From assembly GCF_018420025.1 (NCBI RefSeq), contig NZ_JAEDAM010000063.1:1-6280 (forward strand): a stretch of DNA of 6,280 nucleotides. The letters are read 5' to 3'. Position 1 is the first letter of the stretch, and each line of letters opens with the position of its first letter. Position numbers and translations under genes: made by a program. Below the pieces are notes generated by a model. The model worked only from the letters and a program-made list of their open reading frames with translations, made no database searches and was not told the DNA's origin. The DNA comes from Candidatus Vampirococcus lugosii. GTDB taxonomy: Bacteria > Patescibacteriota > Gracilibacteria > Absconditabacterales > Absconditicoccaceae. This document shows positions 1 through 6,012 of the stretch, piece by piece.

Positions 1-681
1 GCATATTCAATTATTCTAAACAAAAAAACACATTTTGATAATGGTTCAGGTTGTTTTATAGAAGTATGATATAATGATAATAATATTGGATTATGTATTT
101 TATTAAAATTAACTATATAATTATTTGTTTTGTAAAAATTAATCCTTTCATAAAACTCTTTTTCTAACTCAAAAAATTCATTTGATATTCAATAATTATA
201 TAATGACCTTAATTTTTCATCTAATTCTTTATTTCAAGTTTCCATATAAAGAACTCTATACTCTATATATGCAATTAAGTCAATCAATTCTTCAGCTTTT
301 TCTTTTCATTCTTTGCTTTGAAAGTATACAGCAGTTATATTATTTGATGGACTAAATATAATTGAATTTCAATATATATAATTTATGTTATAAACATCAA
401 TTCAAAATAAAAGTCTTGTATTTTTGTTTTTTGGATCATACCTATTTTCATCTCTAAGTATTGGATATTTTTTTAAATTGTTATTCCATATTTTTTCATC
501 TTTAACTCTTTGAATAACTCTTAGCATACCTGTTTTTAACATTTTTTTTATTATATCTTCCTCTTTTTCTATTTCATCTATTTTAAAATTATTTTCTTCT
601 ACTAAATTATCTAATTTCTTTAATTGAAAAAATTTTTAATTCTTTTTCAAATGCTTTTAAATATTCTAAATGAGTATCCAT
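1..681 (-). CDS. Hypothetical protein immediately downstream of hsdS. Its C-terminus runs off the left edge and its frame is broken at an A6T5 homopolymer junction.
   Basis: On the minus strand under table 25, ATG at 681..679 lies 17 nt after the hsdS stop and gives MDTHLEYLKAFEKELKIF..., ending at TAA (609..607). A second frame is open from 635 to position 1: ...QLKKLDNLVEENNFKIDEIEKEEDIIKKMLKTGMLRVIQRVKDEKIWNN...RLLFGIDVYNINYIYGNSIIFSPSNNITAVYFQSKEGKEKAEELIDLIAYIEYRVLYMETGNKELDEKLRSLYNYGISNEFFELEKEFYERINFYK...LSKCVFLFRIIEYA. It contains 5 in-frame TGA. Removing one base from tract 627..637 joins the two frames. The alternative is an uninterrupted start at ATG 542..540. I recognise no family. 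Confidence 0.5.
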
Positions 682-698
682 TCAATAAAATTTAAATC

Positions 699-1912
699 CT
701 AAACCTTCACTCTAACTTTTCCAGTCAATAAATCGTTCATAAGTCATTTTTTGATATTTTCAAGTTTTTGTTTATATGCTTGTTCTTTTTCTATTTTTCC
801 ATCTGCACTTGATAATATTTCTGCTATTTTTTGTTGTTCTTGAAGAGATTTTGGGATTTTTACTTTAATTTCACCTATTTGTTCAGTTCATATGTTAGGT
901 GGATCAGTTCATAATATTTCAATGTCAATAGCATTTATAAAATAACTACTTACAAATAAATAATAAGAAAATATATCATATATATTAAAACAATTAAACT
1001 TTCAAACTCTTTGATTTAATAATGATATACCATCATTACTATATACTTTAGTTATTTTAGATTTTTATTTAATAATGGTCTAGTTAATGCTAAAACTATA
1101 TCTCATTCTTTAATTAAAAAATCACTATAAATACTTTTATAAATATCTGGTAAAAAGGATTGTTCTTTCCATTTAATTTTTCATATTCATACATTTGCTA
1201 TTTTTAACCAAGGAATTCAATGATATGTTTCATCTTTAGACTTAAAAGCATATCAGCCAATTATTTTCATTCTTTTACTTAGTTTCTCTACCTCCCAACT
1301 CTCTGGAATTCTCCCCAACTCACTATCTTTAAATTTTGTATGAGGTTTTCAAGTATTTGTATCAATTCATTTTGTAAATAAATCTTCCATCAATCAAGTT
1401 TTGATTTTTTTGTATTTTTCTATCAAATCATCAGTTTTTTGTATAGCTTCATCTACTGTTGAAAGTATTTCAGCTATTTTTTGTTGTTCGGCAAGGGATT
1501 GAGGGAAATGTATTATTAAATTTTGAACTTCAGAAATATAATTTCTTTTATGACTATCAGGAATTAAGTTTAAATTTAATAAATAATAATATATAAACTT
1601 TAAATTGTAATTATTTATATTTGTTAATAATTTTATTGCAGAAGATTTAATTTTAAATTTAAAATCAACATATTTTAAATCCATTGTAAAATCATCAAAA
1701 ATTATAACATCTCATTTATTATAAATTCAATCTTTTTCATCAGTATATCATAAAATAAAAGCCTTATTTGCAGTTAATACAGGTATAGAATTATTTTTAT
1801 TATAATCAGTAGATTTTACTAGATATTTATCAGGTTGCTCATATTCTAAAATATTATAAATATATTCCACCTTCCATCCTTCAGGAATTTGTATATCTTT
1901 TATATTAGTCAT
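699..1912 (-). CDS. hsdS: Type I restriction-modification specificity subunit HsdS with two target-recognition domains, interrupted by a frameshift in TRD2.
   Basis: Table-25 translation starts at ATG 1912..1910: [75 protein letters not shown]... The central conserved region is PQSLAEQQKIAEILSTVDEAIQKTDDLIEKYKKIKTGLMEDLFTKGI. TRD2 reads SELGRIPESWEVEKLSKRMKIIGGYAFKSKDETYHGIPWLKIANVGIGKIKW...GDIVLALTRPLLNKNLK and hits TAA at 1054..1052. It resumes one base back as (I)TKVYSNDGISLLNQRVGKF...KIPKSLQEQQKIAEILSSADGKIEKEQAYKQKLENIKKGLMNDLLTGKVRVKV, ending at TAG 701..699. This is the classic HsdS layout: two TRDs, two EQQKIAEIL conserved helices and a C-terminal LLTGKVRV. About 15 in-frame TGA fall at Gly-like positions. 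One extra base in the T4 run at 1055..1058 (an A run in the gene sense) restores a protein of about 404 aa. Confidence 0.9.
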
Positions 1913-4208
1913 AACCTAATTCAGTTAAAAAATTAGAAAGTTTTGTAGTTGTTTGGTCTCTATCTTGTTCTATATCTTTAAGAGAAACTCTATATTTATC
2001 CCATAGATTTTCAAAAAAAGAAATAAGTTCTTGTTTTTCTCTTTTTAGATCTCTATTTAGATAATTTTCAAGTATTTCTTTCCATTTTGTTTTTACAAGT
2101 GCTTTTACTTGTTCTTGACTACAAGATTTTCTCCAAGATGCAACTTGTGCAATTATTTCAGATTTTATATTTTTGATTTCTTTGTCTATTTGTTTTATCT
2201 CATCTTTGTATTTTTTGGGGATTTTATAATCTTCTTCATTGTTTTCTGCTTCTGTTTTTTCCTCTTCTATCTTGCTATTTATCTCATCTTTTTTATTTTC
2301 TTGTGTTTCTTGATTATTTTTTAAATCTTGAAAATGCTCATTTATAATAAAATCTTCATCTATAAGAGTATCCACAAAACCTACTGATTTAACAGTTTTG
2401 AAATCATTTTTTAAGTCTTTCCACCAATTCATAAAAATACCTGCAAGTTGGTGTTCATCAAACACATTTAGATCAGATAAGTCTTGTTTTATATTTTGTA
2501 AGTGTTTTTTTCTAAAAGCATACAAATCAAAATCACTATTCATATTTTGAAGTTCTTGCCACATATTTTCATAAAAATCATTTAATTTTGATTTTAATTC
2601 TTTTTCTTTGCTAATTATTCAAGTGTCTTTTTCTATATTTTCACTGATATTTTCTTTATTGTTTATAGTATCATTGAATTTATAAAAATCATCATCTAAT
2701 TTGGTAAGTAAACTTGAAGCATAAAAATTTAATTTATTTATATAATCTTTTTTACTATCTACTTCAGATTTTGGAATTCATCAATTTAAATGAGCTTTAA
2801 CATTTTGAGGATCAATTTCTGGAGAATTGTCTACATATCTTCTTATATTTAGATTAAAATCTTCTTTTGCAAATCAATCAAAATCTACAATACTAGAATA
2901 TTTATCAAGCTCAATTTTTTCTTTGTAAACAGTAGTTATTTTTTGTATATCTTCTTGTCTTAATTTATTTTGATTTTTTCATTCAGCAAATTCATTATCA
3001 GCATTTATGATAATCACTTTATCTTTCATATTTTCAGATTTATTTTTGTTTATCACAATTACACAAGCAGGAATTCAAGTTCAGTAAAAAAGTCATCAAG
3101 GCAATCAAATCACAGCTTCAAGTAAATTATTTTCTAATAAATATTGTCTATAATTTTTTTCTGGTCATCATCTAAAAAGCACTCCATGAGGCAATACACA
3201 AGCAAGTTTTCAATTATTTTTCAAACTTGAAATCATATGTTGCAAAAACATAAAATCAGCTTTTGATTTTTCTGGCATCATTACTTGAAATCTTTCTTTG
3301 TATTCAAGATTTGATTCTTTGTAATCCTGAGAAAATGGGGGATTTGCAAGTATTTTATCAAATTTTTTTAGTTCTCATCATTCTTTGTGAAGAGGTTTTT
3401 CAAGAGTATCATCATTTTGAATATCTTGATTTGTCACTCAATGCAAAATCATATTCATTTTACAAATCGCCCAAGTAGTTCAGTTGCTTTCTTGTCAATT
3501 TAAAGAAATATTGTTAGAATTTTCTTGTTCTTTTACATATTCTTTTGCTTGTATCAAAAATCATCAACTTCATACAGTAGGATCATAAATTGTTTCTCAA
3601 GATTTTGGTTCTACTATTTGGACAAGTAGTCTTACAACTTCAGCAGGAGTATAGAATTCTCAACCTTTTTTTCAAGCAGTGTCAGCAAAATATTTAATAA
3701 GATATTCATAAGCAGTACCTAATAAATCAGGAAATTCAAAATCTTCGTTTCTCAATCTTATTTTATTGAAATGAATCAAAAATTCTTGAAGTTTTTGGTC
3801 TCATATTTTATTTTTTCATTTTTTTACATTAAAATTTATATGGCCAAGTACTCAATCTAATTTTTTGGGATTTGCTTCTTCTAGAGAATGAAGAGCTTTA
3901 TTTAATTCACTTCAAATATCAAATTTTAAATCTTTTAGATAAGACCATTTAGCTTTTGGTGGAACATAAAAACTAAATCTTTTTGAAATATTATCAGTTT
4001 CCAATTTTGCTTCTTCTTGTGTAAATCAATTACTTATATTTTTGTTATAAGTTTTTTCATATTCAGCTTCAAATTCATCAGATAATCTTTTCAAGAAAAG
4101 TATTCAAAAAATAAATTCTTTAAATTCGGATGCATCCATCTTACCTCTCAAAATATCAGCACTTTCAAATAAATGATTTTCTAATTGTTGTAAAGTTAGT
4201 TTGGACAT
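1905..4208 (-). CDS. hsdM: Type I restriction-modification N6-adenine DNA methyltransferase subunit HsdM (767 aa) with a long C-terminal extension.
   Basis: A single minus-strand frame runs from ATG 4208..4206 to TAA 1907..1905 under table 25. The N-terminus is [47 protein letters not shown], an HsdM_N signature. It also has [28 protein letters not shown], motif I IYDPTVGSGGFLIQA (3558..3584), [23 protein letters not shown] and motif [10 protein letters not shown] (NPPF at 3333..3344). Further on it reads [52 protein letters not shown]. By hand count there are about 30 in-frame TGA in the first 548 codons. The last 219 aa equal the supplied ORF 1905..2564. Confidence 0.95.
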
Positions 4209-4278: not shown

Positions 4279-4479
4279 TTTTAAATTAATGTTTGTTTTA
4301 TTAAAAAGAAAAAAACTTAAATTAAGATTAAAAAAAAATAATATATAAGATTTTTCAAATAAGAATGATTTAAAAATTTTGTTCTATAAAGATGAGTTTA
4401 AAATATATTGAAATTATTAATATTTTTTATATATTAACTAAAATTTATTTTTTTTATATATTAATATAAATTGTAATAT

Positions 4480-5043
4480 ATGACTTGAGATGAAAATATA
4501 GAATTTTTTTATTCAAGTGAAAATATTGATTCTAGTACTTGAGATCAATATATAGATTTTTTTACTTGAGATGAAAATATAGAATTTTTTGATTGAGATG
4601 AAAATATAGATTTTTTTATGTCAGATGAAGATTTATATTTTTTTATTATATTCATATTTATTATTTTTAATTCAATAATTTATTATTTTTATAATAAAAT
4701 TTTATTTAATTATAAAGATAAACTTAATTTTAAAAGAGAATTAAATTATAAAAGCACAATATTAGACTTAATTATAATAAATATTATGTTATTAATTATA
4801 CAATTGATTTTATTTTATACACAATTACGGATATTTGATTCTTTAGTACCTCAATTTTTTATTCTTCTACTTGTTATATACTTGGTTTTAAAATATTTTA
4901 GATTAAATGATAAAAATAATAAGGAACAAGAAAAATTATATTATATAATTTCGTTTAAAATAAGTATATATAGTTTATTAGTATATATTGCTATTATGAT
5001 TCTTTTAATAGTTATATTGTATATGTCTTTTATAATATACTAA
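4480..5043 (+). CDS. Hypothetical membrane protein (187 aa) with an N-terminal acidic nonapeptide-repeat region followed by about 4 predicted TM helices.
   Basis: Under table 25 the supplied ORF 4618..5043 extends upstream to ATG 4480, with an in-frame TAA at 4474..4476 just before it. The N-terminus is M-TGDENIEFF-YSSENIDSS-TGDQYIDFF-TGDENIEFF-DGDENIDFF-MSDEDLYFF and contains 4 TGA read as Gly. Hydrophobic segments follow: IIFIFIIFNSIIYYFY, ILDLIIINIMLLIIQLILFY, LVPQFFILLLVIYLVLKYF and SIYSLLVYIAIMILLIVILYMSFIIY. Caveat: I/F/L/Y/N/K-rich ORFs arise easily in AT-rich DNA, and no SD is visible. Confidence 0.5.
4483..4644 (+). repeat. Six contiguous 27-nt tandem repeats with consensus ACTTGAGATGAAAATATAGAATTTTTT.
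   Basis: The units are 4483-4509, 4510-4536, 4537-4563, 4564-4590, 4591-4617 and 4618-4644. Units 1 and 4 are identical, units 3 and 5 differ at a few positions, and units 2 and 6 are more diverged. The period is exactly 9 codons and is in frame with the CDS 4480..5043. Confidence 0.9.
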
Positions 5044-5473: not shown

Positions 5474-6012
5474 ATGGAAATACCTATTTTTGATAAAGAA
5501 AAAAGTAATATTTTATTACAAGAAACAGAAAAAGCAATCTTAGAGCTTTCAACTTTAGATCGAAAAAACCCATTAGACAATAAAAAAAATATGAAATTAC
5601 TGTTAATATAAAAGAATATAGAATCAAATATGATGAAATTATTCCTCGTATAAAAATATCAGAATGTCCTTTTAGTTGAGAACCTTTAATTATTGCATTT
5701 GATCCTATTTGATTAGATGGTCTTTGGTGGATGGAATTCACTAGAAGAATTTATAAAAATGAAATTAAGCCATCAAAATTTAGACTCCTGCGTGGTGCTT
5801 TAAATTTTAATAATTTAAAACCAAAGTGATGAAGACATAAAGCTTTATTAGGTCCAGAAGTTCCTTATGTAATACCTCGTATCTTAAAATTACCTACGAT
5901 GATAATGGTAATATCTCAAATTACTTTGGATTGATATTTATTAAGTTATTTTTCAGATGAAAAACCAAAACCTTGACAACTTACATCCCCATGGTTAGAA
6001 AATAATGTGTAA
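5474..6012 (+). CDS. Hypothetical protein (about 179 aa if joined) with its frame broken in an A8 tract.
   Basis: Frame 1 from ATG 5474 reads MEIPIFDKEKSNILLQETEKAILELSTLDRKNPLDNKKNMKLLLI and stops at TAA 5609-5611. The frame open from 5584 reads KKYEITVNIKEYRIKYDEIIPRIKISECPFSGEPLIIAFDPIGLDGLWWMEFTRRIYKNEIKPSKFRLLRGALNFNNLKPKGGRHKALLGPEVPYVIPRILKLPTMIMVISQITLDGYLLSYFSDEKPKPGQLTSPWLENNV, ending at TAA 6010-6012. It contains 6 in-frame TGA. One extra A in the A8 run (5582-5589) joins the two frames. The second part is visibly less AT-biased than its surroundings, for example CTCCTGCGTGGTGC, which supports real coding. I recognise no family. Confidence 0.6.

Follow-up and report, generated by a model that had tools for sequence, protein, structure and literature searches.

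The DNA analysed here, hereafter the window, is a contig of 6280 nucleotides (nt) with a GC content of 21.4%, and its minus strand carries hsdM, which encodes the methylase subunit of a type I restriction-modification (R-M) system, followed by an overlapping hsdS. Under the standard code hsdM is broken up by in-frame TGA codons, and the meaning of TGA in this gene is the subject of the present analysis. The first-pass annotation of the window had proposed that TGA is read as glycine, as in translation table 25 (the SR1/Gracilibacteria code). The parts of hsdM on which the argument rests are the following:

1905..4208, minus strand: hsdM, methylase subunit of a type I R-M system; 767 sense codons followed by a TAA stop, with 30 in-frame TGA codons.
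TGA codons of hsdM, minus strand, first bases: 4106, 4028, 3914, 3854, 3818, 3803, 3674, 3662, 3599, 3572, 3566, 3563, 3497, 3482, 3440, 3380, 3377, 3212, 3170, 3167, 3107, 3098, 3095, 3083, 3077, 2981, 2876, 2783, 2780 and 2621.
3645..3680, minus strand: conserved segment TA-G-KKG-G-EFYTP, with TGA at 3674 and 3662 and a GGT at 3665 between them.
3555..3584, minus strand: motif I, DPTVGSGGFL, which binds S-adenosylmethionine (AdoMet); its three glycines are all TGA (3572-3570, 3566-3564 and 3563-3561).
3333..3344, minus strand: catalytic motif IV, NPPF, of the N6-adenine methyltransferase, aligned with NPPF/NPPY of solved HsdM chains.

The gene runs from 4208 to 1905 in a single minus-strand frame that is not interrupted by TAA or TAG and contains exactly 30 TGA and eight TGG codons; about 30 interruptions had been estimated before. 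In the remaining two frames over this region TAA/TAG occur 59 and 47 times, and, given the base composition, a run of 767 codons would be free of both by chance with a probability of about 10^-27.6. Therefore, the open frame is not accidental. Glycine codons of the GGN type number only eight (GGT six, GGA one and GGC one), five of them within the first 548 codons, so that the earlier description of TGA as the majority glycine codon of hsdM, with about 30 TGA against 5 GGN in that part, is borne out. Translation with table 11 leaves a single open reading frame (ORF) of 219 amino acids (aa) in the hsdM frame (1905..2564), and this fragment is all of hsdM that the supplied ORF track contained, which was rightly judged to be broken. 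The fragment survives at the 3' end because the last 237 codons (1905-2615) are free of TGA; the three glycines in this part are all encoded by GGT. Since there are only three of them, and one of these columns is TGA in an orthologue on another contig (L001), the absence of TGA from this C-terminal extension is probably due to chance.

The protein obtained from the full frame is a type I methylase subunit. It reaches 251.8 bits against the TIGR00497 equivalog cutoff of 242.75, and the HsdM_N and N6_Mtase domains as well as motifs I and IV are all present. With TGA masked, HsdM aligns along its length with the structures 7vru_A (E = 6.9e-84), 3lkd_A and 7bst_D, the last being HsdM of EcoR124. 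In these alignments glycine stands opposite the TGA codons of motif I and of GEFYTP; in the solved HsdM structures motif I reads DPACGTGGML and DATMGSGSLL. HsdM of the window shares with the type I HsdM proteins of TIGR00497 and of these structures the two domains, the DPxxGSGGF and NPPF motifs and the overlap with a downstream hsdS. As a difference, it carries a C-terminal extension of about 290 residues, which is common to a large HsdM subfamily of about 810 aa.

In order to read the meaning of TGA from homologous proteins without presupposing it, all TGA codons were masked as X. A search of a large protein collection with the masked sequence returned thousands of HsdM homologues, the best 120 of which were aligned, and column statistics were taken from 103 homologues with at most 52% identity, among them named archaea and bacteria that use the standard code. 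Over the 30 TGA columns glycine occupies 2286 of 3087 cells (74.1%) and tryptophan 11 (0.4%), against a background of 5.3% glycine. A log-odds score similar to that of Codetta gave +81.2 bits for glycine at the TGA columns, and the next residues followed far below (serine −132.5, cysteine −181.7 and tryptophan −200.6 bits). The control codons TGG, GGT, AGA, AAA, GAA, TTA, TAT and TTT each returned their standard meaning, with the TGG columns scoring best as tryptophan (+11.1 bits).

The first-pass annotation had stated that the TGA codons fall exactly on glycines that are invariant in the family. This applies to 21 of the 30, which lie on columns with at least 80% glycine, and does not apply to the other nine, which are taken up below. 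Seen from the family side, there are 30 columns with at least 80% glycine, and here the window uses TGA at 21, GGN at seven and other codons at two. The best conserved cases are found in the segments listed above. In motif I the three TGA columns (213, 215 and 216) are glycine in 102 of the 103 distant homologues. In TA-G-KKG-G-EFYTP the TGA columns 179 and 183 are glycine in 103/103 and 102/103 homologues, respectively, and the GGT column 182 in 102/103, so that TGA and GGT stand side by side for conserved glycines. The positions quoted earlier for the two TGA codons of this segment (3674..3672 and 3662..3660) are right, whereas motif I spans 3584..3555 and does not end at 3558.

Scoring against protein family profiles gave the same order of meanings in two different genes. 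For hsdM, the Pfam N6_Mtase profile yields 370.2 bits with TGA as glycine, 327.1 bits with TGA masked and 308.0 bits with TGA as tryptophan, and HsdM_N yields 88.9, 80.5 and 76.2 bits, respectively. HsdS, after repair of a frameshift described below, scores 85.4, 71.5 and 67.2 bits with Methylase_S. The comparison with HsdM_N and N6_Mtase together with a residue count at the TGA columns had been suggested with the original prediction, and on both parts it favours glycine.

Codons were also compared directly in DNA. Three contigs (L001, L003 and L004) carry hsdM orthologues that have in-frame TGA themselves and whose proteins are 58-73% identical. Of the 90 orthologue cells opposite TGA in the window, 84 hold TGA or GGN and none holds TGG; of the 24 opposite TGG in the window, 22 hold TGG and none holds TGA. 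GGN codons of the window face TGA in 5 of 24 cells. TGA and GGN are therefore exchanged among the orthologues as expected for synonymous codons. When two further orthologues (L005 and L006) are included, the TGA share of the hsdM glycine codons drops as the GC content of the gene rises, from 30/38 in the window (79%, GC 0.25) through 25/44 (57%, GC 0.254), 18/43 (42%, GC 0.29) and, at a GC content of about 0.38, 16/39 (41%) and 11/37 (30%), to 8/46 (17%) at 0.50. This trend is consistent with AT pressure favouring the most AT-rich glycine codon. A pattern and tblastn scan of genome contigs returned 80 relatives with the standard code (archaea, cyanobacteria, Planctomycetota and others) and no recoded relative, because back-translation and tblastn presumably use the standard code.

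The source of the window agrees with this reading. The best hit of the masked search was a 767-aa protein of Candidatus Vampirococcus lugosii named 'type I restriction-modification system subunit M' (MBS8122268.1/WP_213349686.1). The HsdM protein translated with table 25 is identical to it, and the truncated hsdS product as well as a 62-aa and a 45-aa ORF of the window are likewise GenBank/RefSeq proteins of this organism, which the NCBI taxonomy places in the phylum Candidatus Absconditibacteriota (formerly SR1). The first-pass annotation had assigned the contig to this lineage from the code alone, on the ground that TGA as glycine is confined to Absconditabacteria (SR1) and Gracilibacteria; both the assignment and its ground hold, as Shulgina and Eddy (2021; PMC8629427) know UGA as glycine only from Absconditabacteria and Gracilibacteria. 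Table 25 is ascribed to Campbell et al. (2013) and Rinke et al. (2013), as cited in PMC8629427 and PMC8080830, and Moreira et al. (2021; PMC8080830) describe V. lugosii as reading UGA as glycine. The meaning of UGA in this organism is thus already known, the recoding having been described for the phylum in 2013 and for the organism in 2021, and the code is already applied in GenBank. Table 25 and the window are alike in having UGA for glycine, UGG for tryptophan, UAA and UAG as stops and a low GC content, and there is no difference in kind. Compared with the other orthologues studied, the window is extreme in its TGA share of glycine codons (about 72-79%).

Taken together, we regard it as nearly certain that the window stems from Candidatus Vampirococcus lugosii and is read with code 25, in which UGA is glycine, UGG alone is tryptophan in these genes, UAA and UAG are stops, and hsdM is an intact gene. 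The shattered appearance of hsdM is due to the standard code only. In this AT-rich genome TGA now makes up most of the glycine codons (30/38 in hsdM and 60/83 across all ORFs of the window). From the literature on code 25, UGA would be decoded by a tRNA-Gly with the anticodon UCA, and release factor 2 (RF2) would have been lost; the markers expected for UGA as glycine are a gene for tRNA-Gly(UCA) and a missing RF2 (PMC8629427).

Some points weigh against this interpretation. At nine of the 30 TGA codons (136, 257, 277, 371, 372, 376, 445, 477 and 530) the column is variable or has residues other than glycine, for instance mostly K (136), mostly E (445), P/S (371) or K/N (372 and 277). Two of the passages that had been cited as examples of invariant glycines belong here, namely ILH[TGA]V and three of the five TGA codons in VI[TGA]LP[TGA][TGA]LFY[TGA]T[TGA]. 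A tRNA scan of the window gave no tRNA gene, and no proteomic evidence for Candidatus Vampirococcus lugosii was found. The nine codons represent ordinary family variation and are uninformative on the meaning of TGA. In the tRNA scan of four related contigs only a tRNA-Leu(CAA) was detected. The supplements of PMC8080830 and Hanke et al. (2014) contain no statement on tRNA(UCA) or RF2, and the main text of PMC8080830 does not mention RF2.

One alternative is a dual meaning, in which UGA is usually glycine and still terminates some genes, either by context or by competition from residual RF2. With only about six gene ends in the window there is some room for such a code, but the terminators of the ORFs are TAA or TAG throughout and never TGA, and the published description presents UGA as a plain additional glycine codon (PMC8080830). 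We consider this alternative very unlikely.

A second alternative is TGA as tryptophan (table 4, the Mycoplasma/Spiroplasma type); several public metagenome catalogues show W at these positions in this gene and in its close relatives. Table 4, which is used by Mycoplasmatales, Entomoplasmatales and several insect endosymbionts, is likewise a reassignment of the UGA stop in reduced, AT-rich genomes with an expected loss of RF2; it differs in the residue, tryptophan instead of glycine, and tryptophan makes up only 0.4% of the aligned cells here. Against the catalogue entries stand the standard-code homologues, with 74% glycine at the TGA columns and −200.6 bits for tryptophan, and the Pfam profiles, which score lowest with tryptophan for HsdM and HsdS alike. 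The five invariant tryptophan columns of HsdM are all TGG in the window, and TGA is never found opposite TGG in orthologue DNA. Retention of TGG for tryptophan had been the earlier argument against table 4, and it withstands this comparison. The probability that TGA means tryptophan here is accordingly extremely small. In the Logan catalogue (P0122; L087/L088) the stored version of this hsdM is the table-4 translation, with W in place of G at exactly 30 positions, and metagenome relatives (P0002-P0017) have W at 27% of the cells in TGA columns. The W in these catalogue proteins stems from the table of the gene caller and not from biology.

For annotation this means that catalogue entries translated with TGA as tryptophan put spurious tryptophans on conserved glycine columns, and that pipelines using table 11 or table 4 on this contig produce fragments or proteins with tryptophan in place of glycine. 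Recognition of code 25 is needed both for correct annotation and for assignment of the contig to Absconditibacteriota.

If TGA were a stop, hsdM would be either a pseudogene in advanced decay or a series of fragments, as the lone 219-aa table-11 ORF (1905..2564) in its frame would suggest. However, TGA accounts for all 30 interruptions, although TAA and TAG are the random stops to be expected at 25% GC, and neither TAA/TAG codons nor frameshifts accompany the TGA codons in hsdM. The full-length protein keeps all methylase motifs and exceeds the TIGR00497 equivalog cutoff, and the same TGA pattern recurs in hsdS, in four other ORFs and in orthologues on other contigs. A decayed gene is hardly conceivable under these circumstances. 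Least credible of all is selenocysteine insertion or context-dependent readthrough with no general reassignment, since, although UGA is the selenocysteine codon in many bacteria, 30 TGA codons in one gene and 60 in 6.3 kb are far too many for insertion that depends on a selenocysteine insertion sequence (SECIS) element, the aligned columns are glycine and not cysteine or selenocysteine (cysteine −181.7 bits), and TGA is freely exchanged with GGN in the orthologues.

A side question concerns arginine codons, as Shulgina and Eddy (2021; PMC8629427) proposed, with a Codetta prediction, that in Absconditabacteria CGA and CGG are tryptophan, besides UGA as glycine. In the recoded relatives L005 (388-2676) and L006 (3001-5214), CGA lies on invariant HsdM tryptophan columns (W in 102/102 and 101/102 homologues). 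The log-odds of CGA in L005 and L006 are +2.5 and +9.2 bits for tryptophan against about −26 for arginine, whereas CGT and AGA score as arginine. On these alignments the CGA pattern of the two relatives appears consistent with the reassignment of CGA and CGG proposed in PMC8629427. In L003 one CGA is found opposite a TGG of the window (codon 550).

The window belongs to the same phylum, yet it neither supports nor contradicts CGA and CGG as tryptophan for V. lugosii. In hsdM and hsdS arginine is encoded by AGA in all 24 cases, and CGA and CGG are absent. The sole in-frame CGA (5561, in ORF 5474-5611) and the sole in-frame CGG (4828, in ORF 4480-5043) lie in ORFs that have no usable homologues. 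It is a tentative suggestion, to which we give somewhat less credence than to its opposite, that the table-25 translation in GenBank is incomplete and that these two codons of V. lugosii are tryptophan and not arginine. If so, the table-25 translations of ORFs 4480-5043 and 5474-5611 would be wrong at one residue each, and the proposed sense-codon reassignment would extend to a microscopically characterised predator, with no new kind of code involved.

The pattern of in-frame TGA is also present in the other genes of the window. All ORFs together have 60 TGA against 23 GGN codons and 16 TGG codons. Beside hsdM, the following features were delimited:

1052..1912, minus strand: first frame of hsdS, 286 aa with 11 in-frame TGA codons, identical to RefSeq WP_213349683.1 'restriction endonuclease subunit S'.
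699..1061, minus strand: continuation of hsdS in another frame, with four in-frame TGA codons, ending in TAG.
1..542, minus strand: ORF downstream of hsdS with five in-frame TGA codons, running off the window.
4480..5043, plus strand: ORF whose predicted product is a membrane protein with TGDENIEFF-like repeats at the N-terminus; four in-frame TGA codons (one per repeat) and the CGG at 4828.
5474..6012, plus strand: probably one gene split at a run of eight A (5582-5589) into ORFs 5474..5611 and 5587..6012.

hsdS begins with an ATG at 1912 and shares 8 nt with the end of hsdM, and both parts of hsdS together contain 15 in-frame TGA codons. The first frame ends at a TAA that is created by a -1 frameshift in a run of four A near 1051-1060 (minus-strand CTAAAATAAC). 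When one A is added to this run, a HsdS of 404 aa with two target-recognition domains is obtained. The frameshift may reflect a true pseudogene or an error of assembly or amplification; the RefSeq annotation of hsdS covers the 286-aa first part only (WP_213349683.1).

Unlike a complete type I R-M system, which comprises hsdM, an intact hsdS and hsdR, the 6.3-kb contig has a frameshifted hsdS and no ORF resembling the restriction subunit HsdR. The gene hsdR may lie elsewhere, and three type I R-M systems have been reported for Vampirococcus (Moreira et al., 2021; PMC8080830). The ORF at 1..542 is not the N-terminus of an HsdR and has no match in Pfam, PADLOC or NCBIfam, and the same three collections gave no match for any of the four ORFs of the window outside the R-M genes, including the predicted membrane protein at 4480..5043.

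The N-terminal repeats of the latter are encoded by a tandem repeat in the DNA (4480-4620, plus strand), which gives acidic TGDENIEFF-like peptide repeats, each with a glycine encoded by TGA. The Logan contigs show another assembly of the repeat region (4458-4590). Of the two ORFs that probably form one gene at 5474..6012, the first (5474..5611) encodes the 45-aa product MBS8122271.1 and contains the CGA at 5561, and the second (5587..6012) has six in-frame TGA codons. For the C-terminal part of this gene a precomputed match to PF28040 (DUF8367) is recorded with the Logan product, which was not reproduced with the local Pfam models. The run of eight A at 5582-5589, at which the gene is split, is also present in an independent Logan assembly (L087) of SRR13241708.

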